Counted from the first letter of the stretch, positions 5,018-50,825 are shown. The stretch is 52,261 bases of DNA from Sphaeroforma arctica JP610 (GCF_001186125.1 NW_014040220.1:15196-67456), one strand, 5' to 3'. Program-made: numbers and translations. Notes: generated by a model from the sequence alone, not told the origin.

Positions 5018-5970
5018 GGTGTTGTTTGTGTGGGTGTAAGGATCAAGCGTTCTTGTGAGTGTATGTATATCGTAGTTGTGTGGACCTTGTTGCTGTTTAC
5101 ACGCAATGTATAGTTACACAAACAAATACGTACCCCAACTATACATACGATAAATACATCTGTATTTATGTGTAAATATATCACACATTACTATGTGTAC
5201 TTAGATATATCACACATCAATATGTGTACATCGTAATAAATATCTCAGACATAGCAGCCACACATGAATCCATGAGCACTGTATTAATTTCCAGAAAACT
5301 AGGACAATTTGCCGGCCCCAAATAGCCTATAAAAATACTTTTTTTTTCAAAATAATAATAGACCCCACCAGATTTGATATTTGAGATTTCACATGGCGCA
5401 GCCGGAAAGCCATTGTGAATATATTTGGTGTAATCAATTCTAAAAATAGAATACCCTACTTCAGAGTTGTATGACTCAGTACTGTACTCAAATAACTCAA
5501 TCCTTTATAAGTGGAACTTATATTCAGGCCAATAGCGCCGTCCCAATATAAACGTTTATCGTAGCCGTATATTTTTTTCAGAGCTGATACGTTTCAATGC
5601 AAAACGTATTGATGTATTTATGTAAATAAATAATGTATGCATGTCTCGGCAAATACGATCGCGTGGACGTGCTGCCCACATTGCTTTTTTATATTTATTT
5701 GTTCAATAGGAGGCTATGATTTGAATATTAGACGGTACACATATTAAACGAAGGGCGTGTAAGTGATTGTATAGCTTAAATATACGATTCAATAATAGGC
5801 AAGCAAGTAGTACAGGTTGGCTTGTGTCTCTGTAGACAAGTCTGCATATCACTTACGAAGAAAGTGTACATACACAACCACAACAATATACGTGTGAGCT
5901 CTTATCGCATTCGTTTATCTCGTCCGATTAAACCGCACGCATCTAGACACCCTCACAGCCTACCGCCGAG
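5018..5970. promoter_or_regulatory. Probable bidirectional promoter/5'UTR region between divergent PUS7 and MPP-alpha
   Basis: About 950-bp AT-rich spacer between two head-to-head ATGs. Positional inference only. Confidence 0.5.
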
Positions 5971-6541
5971 ATGTCCTCAGCCCTTCGCAGTCGTATACTG
6001 CAGCCGCTGGCAGTGCAATGCCACGCACTCGCCTCAGCAATCGCACGTCCCCATACACATCACAGTAGACACACAATCAGTTCATCACCTGCACTACTCA
6101 GCCCATTCAAACGTACCCTAAGCACCTTGTTCACATCCGATCGCACAGTCGAGAGTGTGTCTGGCGAGCCAGAGAAAGTGTCTCTGAGCAAGCCGTTGAG
6201 GGGGTTCGAGAATCCCAAGTATGCTGTGGTTGATCTCAGCAGACCCCCAACCACCCAGATTACACAGTTAGACAATGGGTTAGCCGTGGCTAGTGAAGAC
6301 TCACCGGGAGCCTTTGCGGTCGTGGGGGTGTCTATGGAGGCGGGTACAAGGTTCGAGGAGAAGGACGCTACCGGCATATTCCACTTTCTGGATCGAATGG
6401 CGTATAAGAGTACTGTCAACCATAGCCAGGTATGGGAGGATAGTCAGAAGCACTCGCACAGGGAGATATCGTGCTCGTCAATTTAGATTAGTGTAGATAT
6501 ACAAACATTGTTGATATGTATATGTATGTATGTATGTATAC

Positions 6542-15900: not shown

Positions 15901-16552
15901 GGTACTTACTTGATACAACCATGAAACTCTTGTTGGGTACCTGGGTTATCAGGCGTTGGTTTCTGTCAGAGATGTTTCTTTTTCCTTCTTTTACTCTTTT
16001 GACTGGTATTCTTTCTGCCTTGCCCTTGGTCTTCCGTGTCGTTAGAGGATAGCTTCCTCTGACCCGTTGAGTGTCCCTTCTTCTCTTCTTGACCCCGCTC
16101 CGTGGCCTAAGCTGTTTCTAGTCCCTTTTTAAAATATTTTGTACCTTAAATTATCTAAGGCCCTGATGTATAACAAGTTTGTTTTCCTATTATTTGACTT
16201 ACCGTGGTAAGAATATTGTTAAAAATGTATAGTTTGAGAGTAACCGAAAGATACGACCAAAGGAAACAGTAGACCTCTTCTTAAGTGCGAATCTCTCAGC
16301 TAAGTAAATTCCTAGGCTGAAGGACTCGCATTGAGTCTTTATTTGTGTTTAGTATTTTCTACACTCGACTTAATTTTTACTTAAGTGTTTCTCTCACACG
16401 CGGGAGCCCCGGTATCATCTATCGGTATTTCCGCTATATTTCTGATCGCTCTATCAGAAATATTGGATCCTAAATCCAAAACTCAGAATTTGCTAATCCT
16501 GGGTTTTGGGTTTAGGATTGGCTTTTCTGATAATCTGGTCCCTGGGGGCTAC

Positions 16553-17561
16553 ACTATCAAATCATAGTCTGGCGAAGTGATACAGACAACTGCCTTTGTG
16601 ACCGTGGTCCATTGATCAGTGAGGGTAAATACGGACCATGTCACGACACCTAATTTCTCTTTCGCCAGCTAGTTTTAACATAGTAGGCTCTGATTTACGA
16701 GTTACATCAGTTATCTTACAGAATCTCGATGATATACATGAAATTTGCGAGCCCGGAACCAACAACGTTTTATTCATGCCCGTCAACTCGTACATCTAGA
16801 ATGACACGCGCATCTTGCGGCCTGGCTTGCTCGATCCTCCCTTGATATATTGCTAGCGTCGCCTCTTCTTCCACATTAAGCATCCGAGCTGTGAAATCAG
16901 CAATTTTCTTGTCATTCTCCAAAATCTCGTCAATCGGTGAATCCGTCCCCTTCATGCCACGTAGACACTGATCATCATCATCGTCATCATCGTCCTTCCG
17001 GTCCTGACTTCGCGTGGCCATCGCCTTTGTAGTCTTGGACGTCTTCAATCGTTTGGCAGACGGCGGCTGGTATCGAACTCTGGTGATGATTGACTCTCAT
17101 CCCCGCTCGAGCTTTTCGACTTATCTTCCACCTTAAAATTCCTCTTGTTGATCTTTTTCCGCTTCTGGTATTTATCAAAAGCGGACGCCAACTTTTGTAA
17201 CGTTCGCATGTATTCGTCGGTGTCCGGATCCGAATTTGATTCTACTTCCTCCGATTCCGATTCCAAGGCCACTTGTCATTATGGTGTCCGGCTTTACGGT
17301 TCTGGTTCAGGTTCCGGTTGTTTCACCTCCTACAGTGAGTCCTTCTTCAAGCTTTTCTCACCCTTCTTTTCTTTGGACTTATTAATGACCTCGTCACTGG
17401 TCTCCTCCTTTGACTTCCTAACTTCTTGGACTTTTAAGTACCCTTCTGTCCTTCGGGCGCTTTGGGAGGTAGAGCCACCGCCATTAAAGTTTCGACCTTG
17501 TCGTCCGCTGAGGAGTCGGGGGTCAAGGTGGTTTTGGAACTCGTCACCATAGGTTGGCTCT
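16553..17561 (-). mobile_element. Internally deleted Ty3/Gypsy fragment (gag N-terminal part fused to aspartic protease), related to the element at 38419-47353
   Basis: RVILDVRVDGHE...SQISCISSRFCKITDVTRKSEPTMLKLAGEREI...TTVTKAVVCITSPDYDLIV matches the protease at 43182-43553. Confidence 0.85.
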
Positions 17562-17811
17562 TGTCAAGACAAATCCAACACTGTCATAAATATTACGGAT
17601 GTTACAAATACAATATCAGTTCGGTACCAAGTATTGTACACAAAGATAAACTGACACCTGCCATAATGTCATAAGAGTTATGACACAGAACAGAAATACT
17701 TTGCACTTACGTGCGAACAATATACTTATAGATGGCTAAGTGAAGGATATATATAACCCTTACTTTACGATGAAATAAAGAGATACGTTACATGATTCAA
17801 TAGTTCTAACA
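17562..17811 (+). repeat. Copia 5' LTR (TG...CA)
   Basis: Direct repeat of 24000-24217. Followed by gattatgggcct (17812-17823), resembling the copia-type half-tRNAiMet PBS GGTTATGGGCCC. Confidence 0.88.
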
Positions 17812-17971
17812 GATTATGGGCCTATTAGCTTACTATTCTTCTTCATCCCCTACACGTATCTGTCTTTACTGTGTCACAACTCTCTTCTCTATTTCGCTGT
17901 CAGTTTGACATTGGCTCCGCCGGTCCATCTTTCTAGCTTCGAGTTCACATGCAGTCCATCACCACTCCTCC

Positions 17972-19281
17972 ATGGCTCCCCTCGCAATCGAAGTCTTCAC
18001 TCTTCCTTCCGAGTTTGCATTTCTCGATGAGGCTCCAACATTCCACGCACGTAACTGGCCAGGATGTCCCATTTACACCAGTCTCCATGCAGCCAACACT
18101 CATCTTCTTAGCATTACTGACATGCTCAAGAAATTTGGTTATGACATACCAGTGTCTACTGCTCAGGTTCTCGCGCATCTAGTTGTCTCTCGTTCCACCG
18201 CCAACCGTCTCAAGACACAAAATGACCAAACCTTCACTGACGCCACACACGACAAGCAAAAGGCCGTCGATGCTGAGTATGAGCTTAATCAAGCTCACAA
18301 TCTCCACGCAAGTGACCTCCGCGAAGTAAACATCCTTAAAACTCGCCTGGATGCTTCCCTCGCCAAACTCGCTGACACTGAGGCTCGCTAAGACGATTTC
18401 CTTATCAAACTCGCTAACACTGAAATTCTTCTTCAGTCTGCCCTTCAAGAAAATCGCCGCAATTCTGATCCTCACACTCGCCGTACTCCCATGACTCTCG
18501 CTGAAAAGTATAACATCACCCCAGCCAGGCCTACTCGATCTGTCACTGAATACCCCAAATACAAAGACTCCTACAAACGCTCTCAGCTTAAGGACCACAC
18601 TGATTCCGGCAACTGAATCGTCGTGCTTCGCATAGAGTTGGAGCATTATGGCGTTCTCCACCGTCTCCATCCTCAATGCAACGACCCTACTGTCGGCAGC
18701 GGACCAGACATGGCTGCTGACGCCAAATGTTGTCGCGTCCTCATCGACTCTATTGCTGAACCCCTCATCAACTCTGTCTAAAAAATCACTTTTCTAAACC
18801 CCCTCATACGTTCTTCCAACACATCTGTACCACTACCAACACCGACCGTCATGGCCGATTCTGGACTGCGTTGAAAGTACTCACAAGCTTTACTGCCACC
18901 GGTCCCCCCGACACTACTCTCCAGGCTCTTGAATAAATTCGGCAACGTCTTCTTTATGTCGGTGAAGTGATTTCTGACAAATACCTTACTTGTGCTTTGC
19001 TCTACAGTCTTGGTGACGAATACAACTGCTTACGTTCCGATAATTTTACCGTGACTTGTATACTCTGTCTATCGATGACGTATACACGAAAGTCCTGAAA
19101 TCTATCTCCGGTCTGTCTGCTTTCAAAACCCACCCTGACACCACTCAACCTCCTGTCAACAACGTCCCTCGTCGCAAAAATTGCATCATTTGTAACAAAT
19201 CTGGCCACAGTATCTTCGGTTGTCCTGACTCAATTTGTCGCCGATGCGGTTCTTCAACCCACAAAAGGCAATAAATGTCCT
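17972..19281 (+). pseudogene. Copia gag (disrupted) with two zinc knuckles
   Basis: CIICNKSGHSIFGC and CRRCGSSTHKRQ*C at the C-terminus. Confidence 0.8.
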
Positions 19282-19344
19282 GTCGACCGCACTACTTTAT
19301 CCTGCACCAAGGGTACTCGCACCGGCCACAATGCCACCGCTTGC

Positions 19345-22300
19345 ATGAGTTCTCATCGAAGCCACGGGGACCACTTTGCCATACTTTCTTCCTCCACTCT
19401 ACCTATTCCACATCAGCACACTATCCTTCCGCCTTCACACCACTATCGCCTTTACAGTACCATCTACCACACTGGACCTACATCTCCCTCCTTCGCCAAC
19501 TCTCTCATTGACTCCGGTGCTATGATTCACATCCGCAACACCACCGCCGGCGTCACAAAACTTGAAACCGGTCTTTTTGTTGTGGAATTCCCCGACAAAT
19601 CCCAACTCGCCCTCACTCATTGTGGTCACCTCCCAGGTCTTGGTGCCGTGCTTGTTATGCCTCAAGCAGATAAAGACATCCTCTCTATCCGTCTCTTACA
19701 ACGCCATGGGTTTACCATTACTTTTCCGGCCCAACGCGACGAGACTCAACCCACCGAGTGCAAACCCTAAACCCTAAAAACGACAACGTACAACACACCC
19801 CAGACACCAACGGCCTTTACAAACTTGCCACCTTTACACCCACCACTCTCGCCGACTGGCATGATATCTCCGGACACACACATCCCCGTATGCTCCGACG
19901 TACGTTACAGAATAATAACATCGACACTTATACACAACGCAGTGACAACACTGACAATTGGAAACTCAATCCCGTTTTATTTCAAAAACATGTCGTCCAG
20001 CCTTTTGGCAACGTCGACGTCGATCTTTTTGCTAGTACCAACAATGACCAGATGTCTCTTTATTGTAGTCTCGACCCTGACACACCTCTCCACGACGCTT
20101 TCGCCCAAACTTGGAATCAATCTGAATCTTATCTCTATGGTAATATTCCTTTCACCAAGAAGGTCTGAACCGCTGCGCTGAACAAGCTCGACGCCGAAAA
20201 CGGCTGCGTCACTGTTATTTTTCCGTTATCGCCCAACAACGTTTGCTTTTAACAGACACTCCGTCAACTTCATTTCCATTTTGAGGTCATCCGCACTTCC
20301 TCTGATATTTTTCTCCGCAATGGTGACGAAGTCGTCGGTACTCCACGTTGGCGCTACATTTGCGTCGCTCGTCTCGGGAATGTCGCCCATGCTGTACCCC
20401 ACACTGCCGAACTCTTGACTGCTCAAGCCGATGTGATCGCTCATCCTCGTGACGAAACATTTTGCCAGCCTTGTGTTCAAGGCAAAATGCGCCGCCGACC
20501 TATTTCTCACACCCAGAAAAACTCTTGTACCCGCCCACCCGTGGGTACCGTTTTCCATATTGATCTTGAAACAGGTCTTCCAGCATCCGTCACTAGTTGC
20601 ACATCCATCATTAAATACGTGAACGCTAACTCTGGTATGCCCTTTGTATATCCCTTGAAGACCAACGATGAAGCCGCCTCTACACTCGACTAATTTTACA
20701 CTGATATTGGCAAGGACAAGCTTTCTCGCCTTCGCGAACTGGAGTGTGATCGTGGTGGTGAATTCACCCCTCGTGTCTTTAAAGCCGTCAACACGGCCCA
20801 GCACGTTCAAGTCTTGTTTAACCCCACGAACTCCCCTGCTCCCCACGGCCTTGTCGAACGCACCAACAGCACTATCAAAGATATCATGCTCAGCTTACTT
20901 GCCCATTGCAAACAGCACTCCCAAATGTGAGCTGAAGCCATACGTCACGCTACCCTTCTGCGAGCCAATCAACACAACAAGCGCAATCCAGACAACAAAT
21001 CCTCCTGGGAATTGTTCTATGGTGCCAAACCCGACGCCCGCTTAAAAACTATCCACGTCTATGGATGCCAAGCGGCTTACATCAACCAAGACCGTTACAC
21101 CAAACTCGATGATCCTGCCAACATAGGCGTTTACCTCGGTCATGACACTCACTCCAAATACTACGACGAGTGCCGCATCCATAGTGTCAAAACCGGTCAA
21201 ATATGTCACTCTCGTGACGTCAAGTTCAACGACTGGGTGTTCCCCACCTGGTCAACCGTTGGCACCACACCTCTTCCTAAATTTATTACTCCACCCCAGG
21301 ACATCCCAACCATCCGCGAGCTCACCAACGCCTGTTCTGTTATTGCTTCTAAACAAGTTCCCCTTCTCTCTCCCACCGCTCAGTCCACCATTCACAGCAT
21401 TTCCTGCTATCCGTCCCCCTCTCACTCTGCCGCCCACACGTCTCATTCTCACACGGTCAACTCCGCTCAAGTCTCCACACCAACTCCAACTATTCATCCT
21501 TCAGAGGCGGACTCCGATCCAGGGGAGGCCTCGAATTCAGAGGAGCACTCCCACTCAGCGAAGAACTCACACCGAAGAGAGGCTTCCAACCACGGCTTTA
21601 ACCATGCAGATTCCGACGATGACGACTCCGATATTCCCACCGCCTTCTCCAATTCTGATTCCGCCGATGACTCTGATGATGGCGCCCCCGACATCCCCGA
21701 CCCACCACGCAGCCACACGTCCACCCCCCACTTGGAAGATACAGTCAATACCGCTCTTCGCTATCACATTGCTCGACACCCTTCTTCCCGCACCCTCAAA
21801 GGTCTTCTCCTCCCCCCCCCCCCCCCCCGGCCACCAATTCTGATCCTCTCAACCCACCTCTTCTACCCTATAATATGCGTATGACACGTCAACGTGCCAA
21901 ACAGATGGCAGCCCACAATATTCACGCCCAAAACAACATCACTGTCCCCCTACCCACTCCTTCCCCTTCAGTCTCCACCCCGCCACATGTGCACTGGTCG
22001 TCTGATCTTGAAAACACAGGCCTTCCCCTTAGTACTCGCCACTCACCTCTTGATCCCACTCGTCCGTTTGTCACCTCTACCAAAGAAATCGCACTCAAGC
22101 TGAAATACACCAACGCGGTTCATCACCTTAAACGCGCCAAGCGCGTCGACCAGGCTTCTAAACAACTCCGTCGCGCTCTCGTTACTCGAGCCCGTTTTCT
22201 CATACATCATATCGTCCACTCCATACAATCCAAATCACCACCCCGACTGGTCCTCTATCCGGAACCCTCTGACGACATTCCTATCAAAATCCATACCCCC

Positions 22301-23880
22301 CCTCCCCCCCCCTTCTCAATCACCACCTATTATTATACAATGCTACTGCTCACATAATATACGCCGCGTGGGAAGTGGTCCAATAAAACCCCCTTACCTT
22401 TGCTACTATTCGCGCCGCCCTTCGCAGCGACGACGCGGACCTATGGCGCACTGCTATCGAGCGTGAACTCGCTAGCCTTGCTAACTCTGGCACTTACGAT
22501 CTTCTCAAACCTGACGATATCCCAGACGACGCGTTTATCGTGTCTAGTAAATGGGTCTTTACAGTCAAGCTTATCGACGGCATTGTCGAATAAATACAAA
22601 GCCCAGCTCGTTGCCCGAGGTTTCTCCCAGACGCAGGGCATAAACTATGAGGAGACATTTGCTCCCACGTGCTTCCACGAGACTTTGCGTACTGTCCTCG
22701 CCGTTTTCAGGTTTTGTACTGTCCTCGCCTAAACCCTGAAACAAATGACGTTGATACCGCCTATTTCTACGCTGACCTTGACGAACCCATTTACATGCGC
22801 CCACCCTCCATATCTGCTTCGGTTGGTCTTCCAGACGATTACATTTTATCCCTTAAGAAATATCTCCTCCTCAAATCTAAATTTCTCGGCATGGGCTTCT
22901 CTCAAACAGATCCATGCATGTTTATTGTAAACGATCCTGACATCTCTTGTGTCGTTCTCTTGTATGTCGACGACATTATTATCTGCGGTCGTCATCCTTC
23001 CGACGTTCCTACCTTCAAGACTAAGATCCAATTCAGCTACAAGGATATGGGAAAGACACATTGGTTACTCAGTGTTCGGGTTTTTAACCACTGACCAGTC
23101 AATTAGCCTCGTCCAAGACAACTATGTCAAGGACGCACTCCACACTTTTGACCTCCAAGATGCCCACATTGCCCCCACGCCAGCTACACAAGACACTGTC
23201 TGCAGCAACGACGGCCCAAATACCCATGCGCCTACCGTGAATTGATCGGCACCCTACAGTATTTATCTGTTCTCGCCCGCATTGATGTTAGCTATTCTAT
23301 CAATAACCTCACACGCTATATGACCAACCCATCTCTCACACATTGGATTGCCGCTCAACGTAACCTCCGGTATCTTAAGGATACCCCCACTCTCGGACTT
23401 ACCTATCGCTACCAAGATGGGCCGCCCATCGCTGACGCCTATGTGGACTCTGATTATAACGCTTGCCCTGACACACGTCGTTCCACCAGCAGTTTCGTAC
23501 TTCGTATAAATGGCGTTCCTGATGTCTGGAAATCAAAACACCAGAAGACAGTTACTACCAGCACAATTGAGGCTGAATACTACGCCGCTTCCGAAGATGG
23601 CAAAAAAATAAATTTCTGTGGCTTCGCAACATACATAATGAAATCGGCTTCCCACAACATACCCCCACTCCTCTCTATTGTGACAACAAATCAGCCATCC
23701 ACGTCATCACTGACACCGGTACCATCAAATACCTTGAATATGTAGACATTCGCCTTCATCACATCCGTGATTTACAATCCCAAGGTGTTCTCCAAATCAG
23801 GTACACAATCTTGCTGATATACTTATCAAAAATACACCCCGTCCTACTCATTCTCGTCATACAGGCAACATGCTTACCAT
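19345..23880 (+). pseudogene. Copia pol (PR-INT[MTase insert]-RT-RNaseH), disrupted
   Basis: Motifs spread across ORFs 19345, 19758, 20415, 21012, 22400, 22669, 23242. Confidence 0.92.
19953..20378 (+). other. Dam-like N6-adenine DNA methyltransferase domain within Copia pol
   Basis: DNWKLNPVLF...DVDLFASTNN...YCS...DAFAQTW...YLYGNIPF...LNKL...VTVIFP...DIFLRNGDEVVGTPRWRY. One frame, with stops at 20166-20168 and 20250-20252. Confidence 0.85.
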
Positions 23881-23999
23881 CGTGCCTTCCACCTCAGTTT
23901 CCATTACCGGTAACAATCTAGGGGAGACGGTACAGTAAACTGTCAGTCAACTGCAGATTGTATCCTCTATACATATGCACACTGATGGTTTTAGGGTAG

Positions 24000-24217
24000 T
24001 GCCAAGACAAATCCAACACTGTCATAAATATTACAGATACAATATCAGTTCGGTATCAAGCATTGTTCACAAAGATGAACTGACACCTGTCATAGTGTCA
24101 TAAGAGTTGTGACACTTAGAACAAATATACTTTACACTTACGTGTGAACAATATACTTATAGATGACTAAGTGAAGGATATATATAACCCTTACTATAGG
24201 ATGAAATAAAGTTATAC
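24000..24217 (+). repeat. Copia 3' LTR, truncated at its 3' end
   Basis: tgccaagacaaatccaacactgtcataaatattac... matches the 5' LTR up to about gaaataaagttatac. Confidence 0.85.
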
Positions 24218-24402: not shown

Positions 24403-25905
24403 TTGGACTGGACACTGTACCGCTTCCTGACGATACGAAACCGGAAGAGGTGGATCAGAGATGTGAATGATTGCCAGCGTGCGTCTAGCGGTATATCAGA
24501 ATTTCCAGCCAAAGTAAAAGGTCTCTCAACATTTGAACATTTCTTCCCTATGGAATGGGCTAAGAACAATCTCATATCTATTACGAACATAAATCTGAGG
24601 GCACTAGGAAAAGCGGAGATGGACTACAATGAGTCCATGGTGTAGCTGGCTATATGTATATTAATATGCCTATCGTTAGATACAAGTCCTACTTAGTTAC
24701 GCAACAAGAAAAGGATGATAAAGGCTATGGCATACGGACTTTGTGGCCAGCATGGTATGATAATATGGAGAAGTCATTCTTTGCTTCTGACAAAATCTGT
24801 ATTGATGAAACAATGATGGCGTGGGACGTACCCACTGCCTACGCCAACATACACGTGCCTCGCAACCCCAAGCAATACGGCAACGAATGGAAAACAATAG
24901 CCTGCTGTGAGACCAATATAATATTCAGCGTTGATTTGGTCGAGGGGAAGAATAGGCCAGACTACTTGCCACTTTTAAAGTTTAGCGAGCATCTGGCTAC
25001 GGTTACGGTTGTGCTACGATTATGCCAGTATATTGTTGGTTCTTCTAGACGAGTCATAATGGATTCCGGGTTCTGCGTTCTCAAAGTATTGTACTACCTA
25101 CTGACAGTCGGACATAATAACATCGTTATAATTAAGAAGAACAAATCTGGCCTAAGGGATTGCCAGGAGATCGTATGAAGGACCATATGATGGATCGCCC
25201 TTTGTTTGATGTCCAAACACTGCAAGGAAAGTTCAACTATGTTGGTGAGAAGGATGAGAGCTTGAAGTTTTATTTACTGGCTTTCAAATTACTATATATA
25301 CATGCCTATGTGTATGGTAGCGTTCGCCGCGAGGGACACACATTATACCGTTACACAGCAGGGGTAGGGTATGAGATGCAGTACCCGAAGGTGTATTCAG
25401 ATTACTATAATCAAGGTAGAGCCGCTGTAGATATTAATATTAATCTGAGGAGCAACACGCTATCTATTGAAGAAGGTATATTTACACGTAGTTGGGAGCA
25501 GCGAACATTAAATTTCTTCATCGACATTACCATCACTAATTCAGTGATGCCAAGCAAGCATCTACATATCAACAGCAAGACTATTCCAGAACATCATCTC
25601 CTATTTGTTTTAGGGTTTAGGGTTTAAAAACTTATCATGACGGCGTTTCACTCCGTCGTCGGGCCGTAGCTGAATCCGAATGCAACTTTAGAGAACGAAA
25701 AAAGAATGAAGGTGCATATAACATCAACAAGCGAAAATTCAATGAGGTACGTACCAGCTCGCAATCAATGGTATGCACTGGGGCCGGTTGCAAGCTGCCG
25801 AGAGGTAAGAGTAGACGCAAAACGTACTGTGTATGTTCGCCCTGGAAAACTGTATGTACTGATTGTTATATAGATCATAAGCTACAGAAGCTTGGGCACT
25901 ATTAA
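24403..25905 (+). mobile_element. piggyBac-like DDD transposase pseudogene
   Basis: ICIDETMMAW, PRNPKQYG, VVLRL, RRVIMDSGF, YNQGRAAVD, TRSWEQR, and a Cys-rich tail CTGAGC...KTYCVCSP...CTDCYIDH. Frameshifted. No TIRs recognised. Confidence 0.85.
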
Positions 25906-38418: not shown

Positions 38419-39310
38419 TGTAAAAGTCGGTCTCCTCTAGGCTGACTATACGATATCAAGACGTTTACGTTAATAATACAATACGTTAAACGTTTAAATG
38501 CAAAATGTTAAAAATAAGTTTAGCTTCAACCCTTGATAGTGAGCAAAAGATTAGGGGATTTTAGACTAAGACTATTGTCTATATGCTCCGCTCTAATCAC
38601 TCACTACTTCGGTCTAGATTTATTTATGTTTTAGTTAATAAGACTAGATATCTTTTCATTGGACGCATATTTTACATTTCACGCCTCGAAACAACTATCT
38701 ACTCAAATTAACCAATAAAATATCTCTAAGTCCAACTTAAGAAAATAAAAAAATAAAATCAAAACACCAAGCTGATGCAGTATACATCTGCACCTAAACC
38801 CCATCACTTAGTACCTAGCTCCCCATCCCATTTAAGGCATAGACGGGCACATCTAGTTGGCTGGCTAGGAGGAATCAAAACCAGGTTGCCCTAAATTGTA
38901 ACAACCCTGATCCTGTCCTTTTCTTAGTGGATTATCTTTCTCTGAGATCATTATCGAATTATAACATAGGTTTGTACCAACAACCATTTCATGCCTGAGA
39001 CCCTCTCTCATGGTACTCCCGTTAATTAGAGATTCCCAAAGTGTCATTTTCAGGTGTCAGATTTGTATCATTCCTATATTTTGTACAATTCTAATTTCAG
39101 TGGAAAAACCAATCTATATTTGGAAAACCACCTAATTGTCCACAGTAGAGTCCCATACTCTACTGAGTACTATCACATGTTCAGAATCTTGAATATATCA
39201 ATTCTTGTTTAAACGTATTCCAGTATTATCAGTATAAACGTTAATATGATAATACGTTTATAAAATGCGTTAACTGTGCAACTACTATTAGGAACCCGCT
39301 ATTTTTTACA
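38419..39310 (-). repeat. Gypsy 3' LTR
   Basis: Direct repeat of 46651-47353 with an extra ~200 bp (about 38456-38660). Confidence 0.93.
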
Positions 39311-39484
39311 TTGCCCCCCCCCCCCCGATTTTTCAATGTTGGTTTATATGTGGTATTAGCACATCGACTCAAAAAGCTCACATGAATTGTACAAACGAAA
39401 AGAAAAGAAACGGGTTTCAATCATATAATGGCCTCAATGCTTATGTTATATTCTCTTAGACAAAGTATACTTAGACGTTATAAG

Positions 39485-39845
39485 TTACTCGGTTACTCTA
39501 TTACGTCTGGGCTTTGGTCCTTGTGGTCCCCGATGGTGGATGGGACGTCTCTTAATGACTTTTGGAGGTACGTACATTCCATGCTGTTTAAAGCTGGGAA
39601 TGTATGATGTCTGTGGATAGATCTTAACCACGTCGGGTCGCTTATTCGATGGTAAGATTGCTTCTGCATCAGCCTTATTTTTGTGTAAGAGTTTGCAAAA
39701 CTTCTTATTAAAAGCCTTTAGTACATCCGGATCATCAAATGCTGATGGTGGAATACCATACTGTGCTCCATCGGCGAACTCCGTAGCGTAATATGTCATA
39801 TCCTCATGTTTGTACTCCCTAGAATCTTTTTAAACTTGTAAGACA
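39485..39845 (-). pseudogene. Chromodomain-like C-terminus of Gypsy integrase (frameshifted)
   Basis: YKFKKIL/EYKHEDMTYYATEFADGAQYGIPPSAFDDPDVLKAF follows the chromodomain pattern loosely. Confidence 0.55.
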
Positions 39846-41058
39846 TAAGAGGTGTAGTAGCTTCACGTGTGCGACAAAGGATGATCTCTGTCGTAGGGAT
39901 TAGATGTGACCCAATATTTAAGGCACTAGAGCCGTCAACGTTGTTAAATTCATACGTTCCGCTCTTCTTATCGGCCACAGAGATCATAAATGGTCCAATA
40001 TATTTAGCCGTAAGCACAGTTGTATCGGAGTTGCGAGCCATAATGTTGACTATATCGCCTACCTCAATCTCGACTATTTTTTTGGTATCATTCCATCGTT
40101 TTTGTCTCTTCTTGAAAGCGATGTCCTTCATCTCCCTTAAACAAGGATAGACCACATCTATGGTCCGACGCATCTTCTCTAACCATGGTAACACATGATC
40201 ATCTTGAGACTCCTTGTTGAAGGGTATCTGTAATTCACTATAACGGCCCCGGAAATAGGGAGCGGGTGTTGTACCAGTGACTGAATCAGGGGATTCGTTC
40301 ATCTGTGTCTGTACCCAATTGATTGAGTACGGCCACATGTCAGCATCATCAAGTAGTGCTGCTCGCATGAACTCCTTCATTTTTCTGTGTCGTACCTCGT
40401 TTGCACCTTGTGTCTGAGGCTTGTAAGGTACACCCATCTTATGGCATGAACCCGCAACGAGTAACAATGTCGTCATGACATCTCCTGTAAACTCACTACC
40501 GTTGTCGGAACATACAATAGCTGGCCAGCCGAAATCTGCGAAGCACTTATATATGCACTCAGCCACAGTTTGTGTCGATTTGTCCTTCAGCGGATATAAT
40601 ACATTATATCTTGATGGGACATCAAACACGTGACAGACATATTTATCCTTCGTGTGTTCGGACGTGGGTAGCTCAACCAAATCAATGATAACCCGGCGCC
40701 ACGGCTCGTCTTCTGATAAGCTGCGTAAAGCTGCGTATCCGTAGCGCTTGATCCGGTTAACTTCGCAGTTGTTACATTCGTGATACACCTGAGATATATA
40801 TTGCTTGAGGTTCGGGTTTACGATTCCACACCTCGTACAATCTTTCTCAGTTCTAACCTTATCCATGTGCTTAAGAGCATGATTTTGTCTTGACCACTTC
40901 AGAATCGCCTCCTGTGATTTACTTGTTACATTGGAATCAGGAGGTGAGGATTCCACCGCGTCATCACCTGGACTCGAAGACTCGTCCTGCCCAATCTCGC
41001 CTAAAGCTTCTACATCGTGAATCCGACTAATGTTTGATCTGTCCAATAGGAAAGTCAT
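39796..41058 (-). CDS. Gypsy integrase (zinc finger, rve DDE core, GPY/F)
   Basis: NHALKH...HECNNC, PWRRVIIDLVELP, SDNGSEF, PQTQGANE, KYIGPF. Confidence 0.93.
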   Translation of the reverse strand: MTFLLDRSNISRIHDVEALGEIGQDESSSPGDDAVESSPPDSNVTSKSQEAILKWSRQNHALKHMDKVRTEKDCTRCGIVNPNLKQYISQVYHECNNCEVNRIKRYGYAALRSLSEDEPWRRVIIDLVELPTSEHTKDKYVCHVFDVPSRYNVLYPLKDKSTQTVAECIYKCFADFGWPAIVCSDNGSEFTGDVMTTLLLVAGSCHKMGVPYKPQTQGANEVRHRKMKEFMRAALLDDADMWPYSINWVQTQMNESPDSVTGTTPAPYFRGRYSELQIPFNKESQDDHVLPWLEKMRRTIDVVYPCLREMKDIAFKKRQKRWNDTKKIVEIEVGDIVNIMARNSDTTVLTAKYIGPFMISVADKKSGTYEFNNVDGSSALNIGSHLIPTTEIILCRTREATTPLMSYKFKKILGSTNMRI

Positions 41059-41305
41059 TCATCAATTGCTTAAGCAATCGAGTTTCCCTGTCAGACCGCA
41101 TTTTGTTGTAGAAGGCTTTCGCTAGTGATGCGCTCCTCTTTGATTCCTTTGAATTTGGCTGTATCTCGGTAACACGTACTGCAGGTGCTTGTGTTGTTCC
41201 AGCCTCCCGTTGAGACTTAGATGTCAAGAATGGAATCTTGATTTCTTCAACATCACGCTTGAAGGTCTCGAATTGTGTCCACTTGGTTGTTCCAACTGAA
41301 CCTAT

Positions 41306-41701
41306 TCAACATATAATAGTATGTCGCCAAGGCGTCTTTTGGACTGCACGGGTACCCTGGTAGAGAAAAGTATCTACCTTTCTATCCACATAGATCGGCT
41401 CACATTGTATCATTGAGATCAACTGTGGTAGCCATTTATCTGAGTGTCTAAGGGGACAATACAACGTGATGGCAGCATTTTGAATATGTGCATAATTTAG
41501 CAACTGTGGTATTAATAACCATGGAGGATTTGCCCAGGCATTCTCGTTAGACAAGTCAATCTGGAATCTATCTCCTTTCGGATGTTCCAGTGTCCGGTAC
41601 CTTGGTAGTTGCGCATTGTGATGGGCAGCAAACATATCTATGGTATGTGGTCCATGTATGTTGTCTGCGATCTTAAACCACCGAGGATTGACCATCCAAT
41701 C
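41306..41701 (-). other. Dam-like N6-adenine DNA methyltransferase domain within Gypsy pol
   Basis: DWMVNPRWF...IDMFAAHHNAQLPRY...DRF...AWANPPW.LIPQLL...ITLYCP...KWLPQL...DTFLYQG..VQKTPWR. Confidence 0.9.
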
Positions 41702-43188
41702 GTAACTAGCAACTCCCTAACCCTCTTATTAAAGTCTGGTACGAAGCGAGACAACATGTAGGGTAAGTGATTGTGAATACCCGGTATGTGTGTTATGCTG
41801 AAAGAAAATTTTGCGATCGTGTCATGCCATCGACTGACTAACTGTGAGTTAGGTTTCATGTCCTTTAGGTGTTGCAATGATTTCTGATCACATAGCACAT
41901 TGAAGTGTGTGCCATATAGATAATCCTTAAAATGAGTGAGTGTAGTAACAATAGCCAAAAGCTCTTGTTGCACGGTTGGGTAATTGATCTGAGACGAATT
42001 CATAGCTCTACTAAAGAACTGTACATATCTCGGTTTCCCATCAATCTTTTGATACAGAACGCCGCCGAGTGCCATGTCGGATGCGTTTGTTGCTACCCTG
42101 AATGGAATACCATCCTTTGGTGGTTGGACTACTGGTGCCTGTTGAACCACTGTTTTGAGCTGCTTAAATGCGTCATCACATTCTTTGGTCCACAGCGCGC
42201 CTAGTTTGCCTTTATGACATCTCAAATGTCCAAAGGGCTTTAAGTAACTTGCCAGGTGTGGTACTCCGTCAGATAAAAATTTGACGATTCCGCACATGCT
42301 GTTGACATCCTTACCCGCGGTAGGAGTTCTCCAGTCTAGCAAGTGTCCGACCTTCCCGGGATCGATCATGATTCCATCCCCGGATACTCGGTAACCCAAC
42401 AGTTGAATTTCGTTAAAACCGAAGTGACATTTCTTACTGTTGATCTTAGAGTTGTGCCTGTTGAGTCTGTCTAGAACCTCTCGCACAACTTTGTCGTGCT
42501 CCTCTTTGGTTTTGGTGAATATCACAATGTCATCAATGTATTCTTGTACATTGTCCATGTCCCTAAACAAGTCTTGCATAATTTGCTGAAAGAACGCAGG
42601 CAATATGTCTAACCCAAGGGGGGCACCTTTGAACGAATATTGCTGACCCTCCCAGGTAAAGGTGAAATACTTCCGATGTGGTCGGTAGATCTTCATCTGG
42701 TGGTAGCCCTGCGTCAGGTCGATAGTGGAGAATATCTTAGCTCCCTCCATGCGCCTGAGTAGTTCGTTTATCCTTGGTAAGTGAAAATTGTGTGTCGGTA
42801 TCAAAGCGTTAATTGGGCTCATATCCAAACACACCCGAACTTTCTTCAGTGTCCCGTCAGAGTTGAATTGGTCGACGGCTAAAAGCGCTAGATTGACGGG
42901 AGTCGGCTCATAGTTGACTGCGATCACTCCGTCATCTAACCATGCTTTAACCTGTTCTCGTACGACCTGCTCATAACGCCATGCAACATAGTTACGTGTA
43001 AGACACTTCAGCTTCGAGAAATCTACTCTCGTCAGGTCTAGACTAACGTATCCGTTACTGAATTTGAACTTAGCCCAGTCCGTGATCCGAATCTTGTCAT
43101 TCTCGAAAATCAAGTCCTTGAGTTTCTTTGTAAAGTGAGGGATTATCTCCTTCACAGTCTTCGAAGGTTTATATACCGGTTTCAACAA
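41638..43188 (-). CDS. Gypsy reverse transcriptase and RNase H
   Basis: RVCLDMSPIN, DLTQGYHQM, YIDDIVIF, ATNASDMALGGVLYQ, NYPTVQQELLAIV, HIPGIHN. Confidence 0.96.
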   Translation of the reverse strand: MLKPVYKPSKTVKEIIPHFTKKLKDLIFENDKIRITDWAKFKFSNGYVSLDLTRVDFSKLKCLTRNYVAWRYEQVVREQVKAWLDDGVIAVNYEPTPVNLALLAVDQFNSDGTLKKVRVCLDMSPINALIPTHNFHLPRINELLRRMEGAKIFSTIDLTQGYHQMKIYRPHRKYFTFTWEGQQYSFKGAPLGLDILPAFFQQIMQDLFRDMDNVQEYIDDIVIFTKTKEEHDKVVREVLDRLNRHNSKINSKKCHFGFNEIQLLGYRVSGDGIMIDPGKVGHLLDWRTPTAGKDVNSMCGIVKFLSDGVPHLASYLKPFGHLRCHKGKLGALWTKECDDAFKQLKTVVQQAPVVQPPKDGIPFRVATNASDMALGGVLYQKIDGKPRYVQFFSRAMNSSQINYPTVQQELLAIVTTLTHFKDYLYGTHFNVLCDQKSLQHLKDMKPNSQLVSRWHDTIAKFSFSITHIPGIHNHLPYMLSRFVPDFNKRVRELLVTIGWSILGGLRSQTTYMDHIP

Positions 43189-43553
43189 AGTTCAATGTTA
43201 GTAGGTAAGCCTGTAATTGTGATACCTAATGACAATAAATCACCCATACCTACTATGAGATCATAGTCTGGTGAAGTGATACATATGACTGCCTTAGTAA
43301 CTGTAGTACGTTGGTCCGTCAATGTAAACCTAAGATCGATTGCCATTTCTCTGCAAGTGATCTCTCTTTCATCAGCCAATTTCAACATAGTTGGCTCTGA
43401 CTTGCGAGTAGCGTCTGTGATCATACAGAATCTAGAGCATGTACATGAAATTTGCGAGTCCAGATCTAACAGCACTTTTATTTCATGTCCGTTAACTCGT
43501 ACGTCAAGAATTACACGCTCGTCTCGAGGTGCTTCCTTTTGTCTTAGTGACAA
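43182..43553 (-). pseudogene. Gypsy aspartic protease (DLD in place of DxG, frameshifted from RT)
   Basis: VRVNGHEIKVLLDLDSQISC...YDLIVGMGDL. Confidence 0.8.
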
Positions 43554-43559
43554 GACCCG

Positions 43560-45064
43560 GTATGTTTGTCACTTAACTTCAACTTTTGGTTTCACCTTCC
43601 ATGTATGCTTGTGGTAACCTCCAGTCCCGGTACAGTCGGCACACTTCTCGATAAAGTGCTTACTCTTTTCTGCGTGCCTTCCATTCCATCTGCCATTCGG
43701 CTCATGTCGGGTCATTCGTCAATTGCAATCAATCTCACTACAGTTTTTGACCTTCCTATGCCTGGGCTTAGGGTTGCCTACCGGCGGTCAATTTCTGTTG
43801 GTCTGGTTACCCTTAGGGATGACATTGATCTTGTTGCCTTCAGAACCATTGATATTTTTGTTCTTATTGCCACCCTTGTCACCCCCTTTGTGTACTTTCT
43901 GACCTCCAGTAGTGGATTGAGAGTCTCGACTATTGCCTGATCCTCCGGTAAGATTGCCGCTGACCTTCCTCTGAGCATTAGTGACTTTCACCACGGAACT
44001 AGGGCATTTGGTAGACATCTGTTCCGCTCTCGAGTAAAATTCAGCCCAGGCTAAGTCCTCTAGCTTCATTATACCGTAGGTAGGTCCCTCAATGGAGATC
44101 TCTCGTACCTTGTCCGGGTAAGATTGATGCATATCGGCGTACAGAATCTCTTGATATCTCCTATGTAGGTTTGACCAAAACATTGTCTGCACCCATAGTA
44201 CACAGTGACATGTGTGTGTCCAACTCTAATAAGTAGTGGGATACCGGCGTTCCTTCTTCCGGTGGTATCATGATCGATACAAACAATTCCGGTCGAGGGT
44301 CCGTCGAAAATAAGTGGACGATCATCTCACTCTGCTTTTTCCACGTTTCCAGCCTAGTGATCGCTTGTTTCGCCTTCTCTAACTTGTTATACTTGTAAGA
44401 GAACGGCTTAAAGCTCTGCTGCGCTGCTTCGAATCATAGGTTCTTCCATAGATTGGCTGTAAGCATAATCTGTCCAAACTCTTTCAAAGACCTAGATAAC
44501 AACGCCAGACTGCTAGTATCGATTGTATCCTTTAAGTCATTTTGATCAGATCTGTATGTCGTTGGTAATTTACCTATGTCGTTTACAAATTCCTTGCCTT
44601 CCACAGCCTTCTCGGTCTGAATCACTCTTATTTCTGAATCAATCTTAGTACAGAAAGACTAGCGGCATCAATCCTACCTAGATCCATCGCCTCGAGTGAA
44701 GCTGCCTCGGTCTTGTTCATTTGAACAGTGAATTCAACAATTTCAGATTACTACTGGAGTGATCTAATCCCTTCTTGTCTGTTTGCATCTGACCATGCAG
44801 TCAGTTATCTGACTTATCCTTTGATCCATCGATCTGTTTAATATTAATGAGCGCTTCGGATGGGACAGCATCTTTTGTCGTCATTGGGATAGCCGCTGGG
44901 GGCGAACTGTCTCCCGATGACGACGAGAATTTTCTAGCTTTCACCTGAACAGGTTTAGGCTCTTCGGTCGGTTTGTCCTTCTGAGATACCTCTGGGGCGC
45001 TCTGTGGATTTCCTTTCAGTAATGGATTTGGATTAGGCTCCTGTTCAGATGCCATTCGCGACAT
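43560..45064 (-). pseudogene. Gypsy gag region, disrupted
   Basis: Lies upstream of PR. CADCTGTGGYH zinc-knuckle-like motif. Similar to 50826-52110 and 16770-17272. Confidence 0.6.
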
Positions 45065-46650
45065 TGCTGTTGCGTTCTATCCAGGGAAAATTGAGCTTCG
45101 GGTGATGAATATCGGAGTCTGTTTGCCTCTCCACTGTCTGACAACATCTCAAACGCCAATATAGCTTGATAGAGTGCCAATGGGTTGATATCAAGTCGGG
45201 AAGATCTACAAGAAGATCCCGAATTGCGTAACAAATTAAGAATGCAAAATTTCCATCTCTCTTAGGGATAATATTATTTATTTCAAAAATGGCAAGTATG
45301 TATGATACAATGTATGAACACATGGTATGGCTCTCATAGTCGCTCTTCCAAATACCTCCGGCAGTATCTTTTGAAATTGACGGAAAAGTTTGCATGCTTG
45401 CTTACCTTCGTCAGTTTTCATTAATTTTAGCCGATTGATTGTAATATTTAGTATCCCTAAACAAATCGTACCCAAACTTTCTTACCGCTGCATTCATCAC
45501 ATACCTCGGTGAGATGGTACCATCTGGGTTGGTCTTCAATACGTCCGGAAAGTACGTTCCATACGTATTTCAAAACACCCGTGCCCTGTTGGCCCGCTGT
45601 CGGATCAACTCTCGTTGACCCTTCTTCTGAAGATCAATCTGTGCCTGGTATGAATTGTCCAGAGCAAAGTTCTGTCGTCAAGTCGGTCGGAGTGATGTTT
45701 TGGGTATACGCAGGAATTGTAAGGCAATCCTGCTGTCAGAATCGTCGTCTCGACGGTGAAATGTCTGGTCCACATCATCTGGACCTATATCCACGAATCA
45801 CAGTTATTCTTCCGATACGTTGATTTGGGGCTGATCCAACAGTGCTGTTGGCTCATCCTCCGAGTCATCCTCCCCTGTTTCATCATGACTTCGATCCTTC
45901 GCTGCGGTTTGCTTTTTCTTCCGCTGCTTAGGGATAATATTATTTAGGTCTCAAATCATGTAGCATTGGTTGGTAGTCCTTCAAGAAGGCTCTCCTATCT
46001 CTTGCTATCATGTGATAAGTAGGATCTCGCTTACGTGCTTTGCGCGTATCCATTGGTGAAGATGGTACATCTGATTCCAGTGCCTGTCGCACTTCTTCTG
46101 AAGTTGAATTATCTGAGGATTGCGTTTTCTCGGCGTTTCCCTTTCGAGATTTCGCATTCTTCGCAAGTGGTTTCTGTGGCTCCGTAGTCACATTACTTCC
46201 GGATTCACATCACCTCCCATGGTTATAACCGATATCGCCATCGACTGTATCACCTACGCAGCAAATTCCGCGAACGACTATTCCAAGCCGAAATCCGGTC
46301 GTCTCAGAACCTACTACGGTCGTATCTCACTTTACATGGACCAGCGGAAGGGCTGCTACGAATCTTCGACCGCATCTGGCGTTATGCCGCGGATATACTT
46401 GACATTTTTGAAATAAATAATATTTTCCCTATACCCGAGTCAACCAACTTCTTTCGTTTTTGTTTAGTCAGAGTTGGTACTGGTTGTCTCGGTGTGATCT
46501 CAGTTACGTTAGAGTCCACTGATGATGCCGGGGGTGTTTTCTGCTTCATCGCCTACAGTAAACCAATTTATTTTGCAGCCTTAGTTACATTCGCTGCCTT
46601 ATTGTTTCCTTTCGTCATAATATCGATAGCGTATTATAGACTTAAAAATA

Positions 46651-47353
46651 TGTAAAAGTCGGTCTCCTCTAGGCTGACTATACGATAACAGGACGCATAT
46701 TTTACATTTCACGCCTCGAAACAATTATCTAATCAAATTGACCAATACAGTATCTCTAAGTCCAATTTAAGAAAATAAAAAATAAAATCAAACCCCAAAC
46801 TGATGCAGTTTACATCTGCACCTAAACCCCATCACTTGGTACCTAGCTCCCCATCCCATTTAAGGCATAGACGGGGGTACATCTAGTTGGCTGGCTAGGA
46901 GGAATCAAAACCAGGTTGCCCTAAATTCTAACTCTGATCCTGTCCTTTTCTCAGTGGATTATCTTGCTCTGAGATCATTATCGAATTATACCATAGGTTT
47001 GTACGTACCAACAACCATTTCATGCCTGAGACCCTCTCTCATGGTACTCCCGTTAATTAGAGATTCCCAAAGTGTCATTTTCAGGTGTCAGATTTGTATC
47101 ATTCCTATATTTTGTACAATTCTAATTTCAGTGAAAAAACCAATCTATATTTGAGAAACCACCTAATTGTCCACAGTAGAGTCCCATACTCTACTGAGTA
47201 CTATCACATGTTCAGAATCTTGAATATCTCAATTCTTGTTCATGTCCAATACGTTAAAAGTATTCCAGTACCAGTATAAACGTTTGTATTTATTAATACG
47301 TTTATAGTATACGCTAACTGTGCAACTACTATTAGGAACCCGCTATTTTTACA
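46651..47353 (-). repeat. Gypsy 5' LTR
   Basis: Direct repeat of 38419-39310 with TG...CA ends. Confidence 0.93.
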
Positions 47354-47963: not shown

Positions 47964-50825
47964 CTGACCGAGGAACACATACAAATAAAAAAGTGCATAT
48001 TATTATTTTCAACGTTTTATATACGTATTTATTATTTTAGGAAATACAAAAATATGTATATAATTAAAATTAGGAATACTATTCTTTTATATATTTTTTG
48101 CCATATTTATGAAAAATATTTGGCATATTTATTTCATATTCATCATATTCCTAAAAAATATATTTCGTGCATGTTTCATATTTATTATTTTTCCAAAAAT
48201 ATATATGTTACATATTTATTATTTCTCTTGTATAATTTCCTCATATTTGTTTTTTCTCCTATATTTCCATATATTTAAATACTTCATACTACAAGGTATT
48301 GACATAGCTTGCTATTTAGTATGTGTGACGATAGTTGATACTAAAAGTTAAAAACACATTGATAAACAGTCCTTGTGTATGCACAACACATATGCACAAC
48401 GTAGCATAGTAATCTACCAAGGCTGAGTCATAGAACTCGACAGAGATCATTTAGCAGTGAAGCAGGAAGATGTACAGATTAAGGTGCACTTGAATACTGT
48501 GCACTAGGGTGGCATATGTGAGCATGTGGGCTTATATTGTCACTGTATATAAGTCAAATAAACTAACAATCTATGTGTTGCTTGTCAGTATTTCAACACC
48601 ACAAGAGTATAAAACTGGATTGATTTTTTTTGCCGCCTTTTTTTGTTCGAAAAAACAATCAATTTTTAAATTGGTAACAATTTGCCACCTTATTTGAAAA
48701 AGGTGGTCAACATGCATCGCGCGGAATCAGGATAAATTGCAACTGACGCTATACTACTGGTACAATAGCTCTGAAATTGGTAACATTGCTCAAGGACAAT
48801 ACTAATGATAGGTGTGAACAATTATTTGTATGACTATGAATTACAAAGTTCACAATGTCGCTTCTGGCAGGATATGTGACAAGTGTGGACTACGTCGTCT
48901 GTGACCAGGATGCGCTCAGGAGACAAAATATCGAACTAGTATGTATTGTGAAAAAGCGTTTTTCGGTTATCACCCGACTACAATAGTGTCAAAAAGAGTG
49001 TCCAACATGTGGGTTTGTAATTTTTGATGTTATTTCCTCCAATTTGGTATAGTTCAAATTACAGGGTCTTTCACGCATACTTGCGAAGTTACACAACTAT
49101 ATATATGGACACATATGTCCATGAAAACACACATATATATATACAGACGATAANNNNNNNNNNNNNNNNNNNNCAAACATACATACATATATATATATAC
49201 ATATATATATATATAGATGAGAAATATGGCAAATTTTAGAAATATGCCATACGTACAATATACAAATTTACGAAATATATTATATAATATAGTATATGAA
49301 AGAAAATGTTTATGCGATATTTCACATCAGCTATAATTCAGCTACTATACACGTGTACAATTCCCTTAATATAGCTACAAACTACAACCACTCTGCCTAT
49401 ATAATTATTCCAATATAACTACAAAATATAGTCAATATGCCTATATAAATCCTTTGATAGAACTGCAAAATACAGGCTATATGCCTATACAATTCCTATA
49501 ATACAGCCGTGAAATACTATATATTATATTTCGTGTTGTACGAATGGCATATTTTAGAAATATGGCATATTTTAGAAATATGGCATATTTACGGCATATT
49601 TTTAAATATGGCATATTTCATTTTTTTTTATATACCAAATATTATTATTTTTGCCATATTTCTGAAATCAACACGCGTACTACTTATTATTTTCCAAATT
49701 CCATATCGTATTTCATATTTTATATTTAACGTTTTCAGTGCATACTTAATATTTTAAAAAATAATACGCCAATTTTTCGCCATATATATAATCGAAAATG
49801 TTTAGCTCTGGTGTCCTTGAACTCTGGAAACATGATTTTTGAAATTCCGATTTCTAGATGTTTCAAAAAGAAAAAGAGTACATATGATGCTGGTTTCTTA
49901 TTTGTTTTTTTTAAATATTTAAATAGATACTAACAAGTAATTTTGTTTTTTTTAATAAAAATAAAAATAAATATTGACAATGACGCAGTCTCATTGTCTC
50001 AATTCTCAAATTTCCAGTGAGGCGTGACCCCGGTGAGCCCAGTGGCAGTACTGAGTACATATGACATATGTGTGCTGTCCACTGTACCCAGTTCCCACTG
50101 GCCACTGTCCAGTGACACTGTGGTGGAGTCCTCTCACTCCTTTGGTCTTCCGGTGCCGCACTGCTTTGCAGCCTTTGCCCTTTGGGCCATATTCACAGCA
50201 AGAACGCGCGAGACGACGGACTCTGGAGACGAACAGTACATTTGAAAATATAGTTTAAAAATACATAGTTTTTTTATTTTATTTAAAAAAATACGTACGA
50301 AAACGTATCTACGAATTGAAGCCTGGTCCTAATATTTAAATACTCTTTTGAGAGTCTGAAGAGCCACAAACCTCAAAAATCTCAACGCAAGAAAAAGAGA
50401 AGTTTTTGTTTTTCTATACTATTAAAATTTCTATAAAAAATGTAAACAAAAACTTCCTCAGCAATGTTATGTACATACATACTGTGCCAAACGAATGTCT
50501 TCATACGGCACTGGTGACAATAAAATTAATAACCACCTCAGGCTCAGTTTCCTACCCGCCTCATACTTTTTCGAGTTTACTTTGCCTTTTTAAGATGTAA
50601 TTAGCGTGATTTTACCCCATTTATTGCACTGTTGCATTAGTTCTTTGTCGGCCTCAGAAGAGAGGCCGACGTATTTTAGACACGAATAGGGATAATATTA
50701 TCTATTTCAAAAATGGCAAGTATGTATGATACAATGTATGAACATATGGTATGGCTCTCATAGTCGCTGTAGTGGTTCAGGAGAGATTGATGGGAAGAAG
50801 TGGTCAGTAAATTCCCGTTTGAAGC

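Follow-up and report, generated by a model that had tools for sequence, protein, structure and literature searches.

The stretch of DNA analysed here, referred to as the window, covers 52,261 nucleotides of Sphaeroforma arctica JP610 (GCF_001186125.1, NW_014040220.1:15196-67456). Its minus strand holds a long terminal repeat (LTR) retrotransposon of about 8.9 kilobases that encloses a domain resembling N6-adenine methyltransferases of the Dam/DIRS type. This element very probably belongs to a repeated family of Ty3/Gypsy retrotransposons and is itself a dead copy, in which the Dam-like domain sits between RNase H and integrase. A second Dam-like domain is found in a decayed Ty1/Copia element on the opposite strand.

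Anatomy of the Gypsy element

Along the element, Pfam models match in the order RVP_2 (weakly), RVT_1, both Gypsy-type RNase H models, Dam and rve, which corresponds to protease, reverse transcriptase (RT), RNase H (RH), Dam-like domain and integrase (PR-RT-RH-Dam-INT; Table 1). The two LTRs are direct repeats that differ by 29 substitutions over 638 aligned bases. An original prediction, drawn from the sequence alone, had named a DDE integrase, direct LTRs and a polypurine tract, and all three were recovered as an rve match, TG...CA repeats and a G13 tract. The hallmarks of DIRS elements, a tyrosine recombinase and inverted or split repeats, are replaced here by the rve integrase and simple direct LTRs; none of the seven open reading frames (ORFs) of the element that were scanned matched a tyrosine recombinase.

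The remaining parts are more eroded. The single gag fragment scanned had no Pfam match. In the protease ORF the active-site motif is altered (LLDLDS), and its frame differs from that of RT, with which the protease of the relative P0003 shares a frame. The flanks of the element read CCAT and CAAT, and a perfect target-site duplication was not seen. No TGG-type primer site was seen by eye. Where the tRNA primer site would be expected, the eight bases past the 5' LTR (46643-46650, minus strand) could pair with bases 3-10 at the beginning of the LTR, which may be a hint of self-priming or may be chance. A short repeat also occurs twice in the 5' region of the element (45263-45344 and 46395-46431, one of them inverted) and once outside it (50687-50768, 97.6%).

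Table 1. Features of the Gypsy and Copia elements, with positions counted from the first base of the window
Feature	Position	Strand	Remarks
Gypsy 5' LTR, TG...CA	46651-47353	-	about 200 base pairs shorter; block at 38464-38660 of the 3' LTR missing
Gypsy 3' LTR, TG...CA	38419-39310	-	
Polypurine tract, G13	39314-39326	-	ends 3 nucleotides before the 3' LTR
Broken gag region, C-terminal zinc-knuckle-like motif (CADC 43643-43632)	43632-44700, 5' limit approximate	-	three-frame translation
Aspartic protease-like ORF	43185-43568	-	RVP_2 E=0.002 (weak)
RT and Ty3/Gypsy-type RNase H	41702-43188	-	RVT_1, RT_RNaseH, RT_RNaseH_2; YIDD 42540-42529
Dam/DIRS-type N6-adenine methyltransferase-like domain, 131 residues	41701-41309	-	starts DWMV; DMFAA 41638-41624; NPPW 41530-41519
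TGA stop	41308-41306	-	absent from most other copies
Linker, Dam frame, 92 codons	41027-41305	-	closes with TAG 41029-41027; poorly conserved
Integrase ORF	39799-41058	-	rve E=1.7e-11; HHCC-like finger 40881-40765; D-D-E core near 40689, 40509, 40407
Integrase C-terminal region	39488-39829	-	one more frame break; tblastn with P0002/P0003
Decayed Ty1/Copia element	17562-24217	+	LTR-like repeats 17562-17786 and 24000-24217, 87%
Copia Dam-like domain, 138 residues	19953-20366	+	VDLFAS, NIPF (motif IV), two stops; integrase frame

A dead copy among many

The window copy is dead because its motifs are altered and its frames broken: besides the changed protease site, two acidic positions of RNase H are replaced (ATNASD, LPYMLSR), and breaks separate protease from RT, RNase H from the Dam-like domain and linker from integrase, with a further one in the integrase tail. 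The domain with intact DMFAA and NPPW motifs behind RNase H was found as foreseen, and some details of its surroundings had to be corrected. A frameshift had been placed directly after HNHLPYMLSRF; the RNase H frame in fact runs past this end (41775-41743) for 13 residues, which match those of intact relatives, and breaks at about 41702. The linker does continue in the Dam frame, as proposed. The integrase towards which it was said to lead is back in the RT frame, and a second break between 41048 and 40941 keeps the two apart. This linker is shorter than those of the relatives P0002 and P0003. Programmed frameshifting around the domain was considered and rejected, since the RT frame contains stops across the domain and the relatives are in frame.

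Other copies in the host lack several of these lesions. The TGA noted behind the domain is present in the window, while contigs from all four sequencing runs carry another letter at its position (45, 22, 25 and 21 contigs; about 99% of the summed depth). The same holds for the two altered RNase H positions, where other letters prevail in all four runs. The Dam-like domain is covered by many host contigs, and at its end one contig of 228 bases reaches a depth of 17,626, compared with 71-76 for the other contigs listed from the same run. This points to many copies, though the depth is not a count.

Intact relatives

When the domain and its linker were compared with longer proteins, 552 candidates yielded four matches: P0002 (1376 residues), P0003 (1400 residues), the Dam-integrase fragment P0004 and a DIRS protein of Chlamydomonas. 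P0002 and P0003 are about 50% identical, and each encodes its domains in a single frame, RT-RH-Dam-INT in the former and PR-RT-RH-Dam-INT in the latter. When P0003 was used as the query, a Dam-like domain occurred in seven of the best 120 of 1274 matches. It lies between RNase H and integrase in four of them (P0003 itself, P0002, P0021 and P0022) and before RT in the other three (P0045, P0055 and P0126). The latter are Gypsy Pol proteins with Dam ahead of protease or RT, in P0055 together with a chromodomain, and stand apart from the RH-Dam-INT proteins in both trees described below. The Pfam Dam model matches P0002, P0021 and P0022 with E-values from 7.4e-6 to 2.9e-14; a chromodomain was not matched in P0002 or P0003.

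The methyltransferase-bearing Ty3/Gypsy lineage that had been proposed does exist: far from never sharing a frame with its neighbours, the domain is encoded in one frame with RT, RNase H and integrase in these four proteins. Its place after RNase H, likened in the original prediction to that in DIRS, is borne out as well, with the domain starting 15 residues past RNase H in P0002 and P0003 and five residues past it in the DIRS-like P0017.

Among 80 metagenome loci kept from 138 relatives, two (L001 and L052) are of Gypsy type with RH-Dam. The RT of L001 is identical to that of P0021, hence it is not independent, and L052 ends within the Dam domain. For most other loci the RT scores better with a DIRS query. 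In three RH-Dam-INT proteins (P0010, P0004 and P0021) an Agenet/Tudor-like match was observed between Dam and integrase (E=4e-6 in P0010, above the cut-off), possibly a chromatin reader beside the methyltransferase.

The Dam-like domain

The Pfam Dam model (PF05869) matches the window domain with E=1.5e-5 and 25.2 bits, below its curated cut-off of 28.1. A profile built from 35 DIRS-like domains alone assigns 93 bits (E=5e-30) to the domain, the best among the six frames of the window. With these scores the resemblance is not a matter of chance. Among the window copy, P0002 and P0003 identity amounts to 63-69% for Dam, 63-73% for RT, 74-77% for RNase H, 57-63% for the integrase core and 25-30% for the linker. 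The domain is conserved at the level of RT, and on these values it is apparently under constraint. The proposed retention of catalytic residues stands for six of the seven RH-Dam-INT rows, which keep NPP[W/F], and not for P0003, where the motif reads CPPW. Motif retention is in any case no demonstration of enzymatic activity.

An AlphaFold2 model from an eight-row alignment has a mean pLDDT (predicted local distance difference test) of 85.7. The predicted Rossmann-type fold, motif I and [NDS]PP[YFW] are those of N6-adenine methyltransferases. The closest solved structure is PCIF1/CAPAM, with a Foldseek TM (template modelling) score of 0.67-0.72 and first rank among 48,161 structures in VIA-align (Z 10.8, root mean square deviation 2.6, 124 aligned residues). 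The match spans PCIF1 residues ~495-647 alone, at 12-14% identity. T4 Dam follows lower among the solved structures (Z 8.3-8.7). The predicted structures of viral proteins give another order: the top matches are phage proteins named as N6-adenine methyltransferases, together with unnamed entries (TM 0.67-0.78, E down to 2e-8), and viral PCIF1-like proteins rank lower. Three of the eight aligned members match PCIF1_WW weakly (best E 0.015). Searches of PDB sequences with the domain found nothing relevant.

Phylogenetic placement

For the comparison with DIRS, 34 de-duplicated loci with Dam and a near-full RT in one ORF were used together with P0017. Their label is partly verified, as 8 of 20 tested neighbouring ORFs match tyrosine-recombinase models and none of the 20 matches rve. 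The Gypsy side is represented by 44 of 112 matches without Dam, all from one search. With leave-out profiles from these sets (44 and 35 rows), the RT of the window scores 172 bits against Gypsy and 104 against DIRS; its RNase H scores 131 and 24 bits, respectively, and 105.6 bits with PF17919. The best sequence match of RT/RH in the PDB is Ty3 RT/RH (211 bits).

Unrooted RT trees of 89 rows (quick) and 49 rows (careful) split off DIRS at 100/100, with the window outside. The RH-Dam-INT group branches deep, between DIRS and canonical Gypsy (100/98), and its median path is 2.4 to Gypsy versus 3.36 to DIRS. Nesting of the group within DIRS, which would have spoken against the expected placement of the RT, is never seen; a sister relationship of the group with DIRS is not rejected once the tree is rooted (approximately unbiased test, p-AU 0.158). 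Hunts for plasmid and phage outgroups gave three records and one record, which were not used in the trees.

In the Dam tree the RH-Dam-INT rows form one clade among DIRS domains (97/86 with six rows, 90/79 with L052), apart from elements with an N-terminal Dam. Five of the six RH-Dam-INT rows also form one clade in the RT tree (96/93). We infer that a single old capture of Dam followed by co-descent would fit both trees. As an aside, a chromodomain match lies in an overlapping ORF of great length in a DIRS-like locus of the metagenome sample (L019:2-4411).

Relation to known systems

The Gypsy-Dam architecture is real and multi-copy, but its class was published in May 2026, when Fernandez-Moreno et al. 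defined five lineages of DAM-LTRs (bioRxiv 10.64898/2026.05.21.726589). One of these is ichthyosporean and without a chromodomain, and in the Chloro-Ochrophyta lineage Dam lies between RT and integrase. Our family shares features with both, since P0002 and P0003 have no chromodomain match and Dam comes before integrase. Being a Ty3/Gypsy LTR family whose Dam domain is of DIRS type and has an NPP motif, it also agrees with the DAM-LTR definition, a PF05869-like domain in an LTR Pol; the window domain with its E=1.5e-5 lies just above the 1e-5 screen limit of the preprint. In two ichthyosporeans, DAM-LTRs were reported to carry more N6-methyladenine (6mA) and to be more expressed than other LTRs, and a model was put forward in which reverse-transcription intermediates are methylated, after which the host AMT1 takes over.

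Other systems resemble the element in parts. DIRS1-like elements share a homologous domain and the order RT-RH-MT (MT, methyltransferase), given for DIRS in PMC3266345 and seen in P0017; they have a tyrosine recombinase and inverted repeats, whereas the window element has a protease, a DDE integrase, direct LTRs, a polypurine tract and a Gypsy-type RNase H. PCIF1/CAPAM (PMC8287941, PMC4738411) shares the NPP-aromatic catalytic motif and is the best solved structural match, but its helical cap-binding and WW domains have no counterpart in the 131 residues between RNase H and the variable linker, and sequence identity is low. The phage Dam family PF05869 provides the Pfam match and the best predicted-structure matches, though the window domain is fused into a retrotransposon Pol and scores under the curated cut-off. 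KnitGypsy-Dnmt3, described in PMC5890265, likewise has a Gypsy Pol that encloses a DNA methyltransferase domain; this is a C5-cytosine enzyme, however, and unrelated to Dam.

What could the domain do?

The explanation we favour, at a probability of roughly 0.65, is that the dead copy belongs to a family whose Gypsy Pol likely uses its Dam-like domain for self-marking by 6mA. An intact element would make a single polyprotein of protease, RT, RNase H, Dam-like domain and integrase, the domain having probably come from a DIRS element, captured when the two recombined close to the end of RNase H, as its DIRS-like position suggests. It would ride in the particle alongside RT and integrase and place 6mA on the element's own reverse-transcription product, either cDNA or an RNA:DNA hybrid. 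New insertions would then land pre-marked as active chromatin by a permissive mark, and a hand-over to host AMT1 might follow, as in the preprint's model. The step at which the predicted methyltransferase domain itself methylates the new copy is the tentative part of this scheme, and we would put it slightly below even odds.

Several observations weigh against self-marking by a Gypsy lineage. Such domains brought no gain of 6mA in dam-minus E. coli (bioRxiv 10.64898/2026.05.21.726589). Iyer et al. assign the DIRS1 domains to the PCIF1 clade and consider them likely inactive (PMC4738411). The intact P0003 carries CPPW, just 16 of the 35 DIRS-like rows have NPPF, and the motif IV Asn is replaced in the other 19. 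With its 131 residues the domain lacks a target-recognition domain of its own, and the solved structure that it resembles most belongs to an RNA enzyme. Since one contig alone, from one of the four runs, differs in length where RNase H meets Dam, an in-frame copy at this identity is weakly shown in the host. Finally, with two Copia rows that align poorly as the root of the RT tree, the group joins Gypsy with weak support (71/25).

Could the domain be conserved without being catalytic, binding S-adenosylmethionine, adenine or nucleic acid, or acting as a spacer before integrase? The variant in P0003 and the loss of the motif IV Asn next to a motif I that is nearly invariant across the DIRS-like rows would fit such a module, as would the verdict on DIRS1 domains and the negative assay. 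The persistence of NPP[W/F] in nearly all RH-Dam-INT rows across deep RT divergence and the enrichment of 6mA on DAM-LTRs speak against it, and on balance we consider it unlikely, if far from negligible. A different substrate is conceivable as well: a PCIF1-like enzyme would methylate a cap-adjacent or internal adenosine of the element transcript, not DNA, to protect, translate or package it. The leading solved match, the weak PCIF1_WW matches and the clade assigned to DIRS1 domains agree with this idea, and an RNA substrate would explain the E. coli result. However, predicted structures of the phage Dam family match equally or better, and PCIF1 may lead merely because the solved matches do not include a close phage Dam. 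The helical domain that PCIF1 needs for cap binding (PMC8287941) is absent here, and it is the DNA of DAM-LTRs that is enriched in 6mA. We regard this proposal as quite improbable.

The history of the domain can also be read in other ways. The RH-Dam-INT group could be a deep lineage near the ancestor that DIRS and Gypsy share, from which DIRS departed by swapping integrase for a tyrosine recombinase, with no capture of Dam from DIRS by Gypsy. Its position in the unrooted RT trees, the union with DIRS left standing by the rooted test and the shared place of Dam behind RNase H are compatible with this. The RNase H is nevertheless clearly of Gypsy type, the best rooted tree weakly unites the group with Gypsy, the Dam-less Gypsy row P0044 branches deep too, and the Dam domains of the group sit among those of DIRS, from which the preprint infers several transfers; such an origin seems very unlikely to us. 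That a DIRS fragment was inserted by chance into this one copy, or that the assembly is chimeric, might be suspected from the frame breaks that bound the domain. P0002 and P0003 refute this, as both are intact in a single frame and share the junction; the many host contigs over the domain and the scan for tyrosine recombinases point the same way, which leaves it next to no probability.

A Dam-like domain in a Copia element

The decayed Copia element follows the order gag-PR-INT-RT-RH, as seen by tblastn with a Copia polyprotein, a SH3_retrovirus match, and in-frame YVDD and RNase H motifs. Its Dam-like domain splits the zinc finger of the integrase. The His and Cys parts of this finger, usually ~20-35 residues apart in Copia, are separated here by 195 residues, from WHDISGH (19857) to CQPC (20463). 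The DIRS-only profile gives it 52 bits, and Pfam no better than E=0.016; in the Dam tree it does not join the Gypsy domain and sits on a long branch of uncertain position. The N-terminal junction and the entire domain are spanned by contigs that agree with the window in every base. There is also a second copy of 82-87% identity with the same order, seen in a 1268-base contig in three of the four runs and, in the fourth, in a contig of 864 bases; its net changes in length amount to 33 and 99 bases. We consider it probable that the Dam-like domain truly resides inside the integrase finger.

Searches for relatives gave weak evidence throughout. When longer proteins related to the Copia segment were sought among 3758 candidates, the one match was a plant Copia protein without Dam, so that no intact relative was found; three Copia queries matched none of 84 loci at 1e-4, and a scan of viral contigs with the Copia RT had no match. 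The literature searched contained no report of Dam in Copia. In the DAM-LTR preprint the word 'copia' occurs 0 times, its main text does not mention Copia/Ty1, and a mention of PCIF1 was not seen there. A bolder joint reading would combine two independent captures in one genome, one after the Gypsy RNase H and one in the Copia integrase finger, with a PCIF1-like writer of element RNA or RNA:DNA hybrid. The failed E. coli assay would then be explained, because such a writer marks RNA or hybrid and not double-stranded DNA, yet we hold this combination to be a long shot.

Neighbouring sequences

To the left of the Copia element, a remnant of a protease from the Gypsy family described above (16552-16820, minus strand) shares ~75% DNA identity with 43252-43524; no continuation was found to its right. 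Adjoining the Copia 3' LTR lies a DDE_Tnp_1_7 transposase relic (24633-25175, plus strand), which we take to be piggyBac-like. Exons of a peptidase M16 gene occupy 5947-6483 and 9409-9885 (plus strand), with DNA rich in microsatellites and minisatellites between them.

Implications

The Gypsy finding itself repeats that of the May 2026 preprint (bioRxiv 10.64898/2026.05.21.726589). The function of the methyltransferase domain in DIRS and LTR elements has been an open question ever since it was first seen, and the match to PCIF1 points to substrates that are absent from the published assay. For the testing of substrates the family offers intact polyproteins with NPPW (P0002 and P0021) as well as a natural CPPW variant (P0003). 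The Copia case, if true, would add another superfamily to those that have captured Dam, and a new position for it within the integrase.

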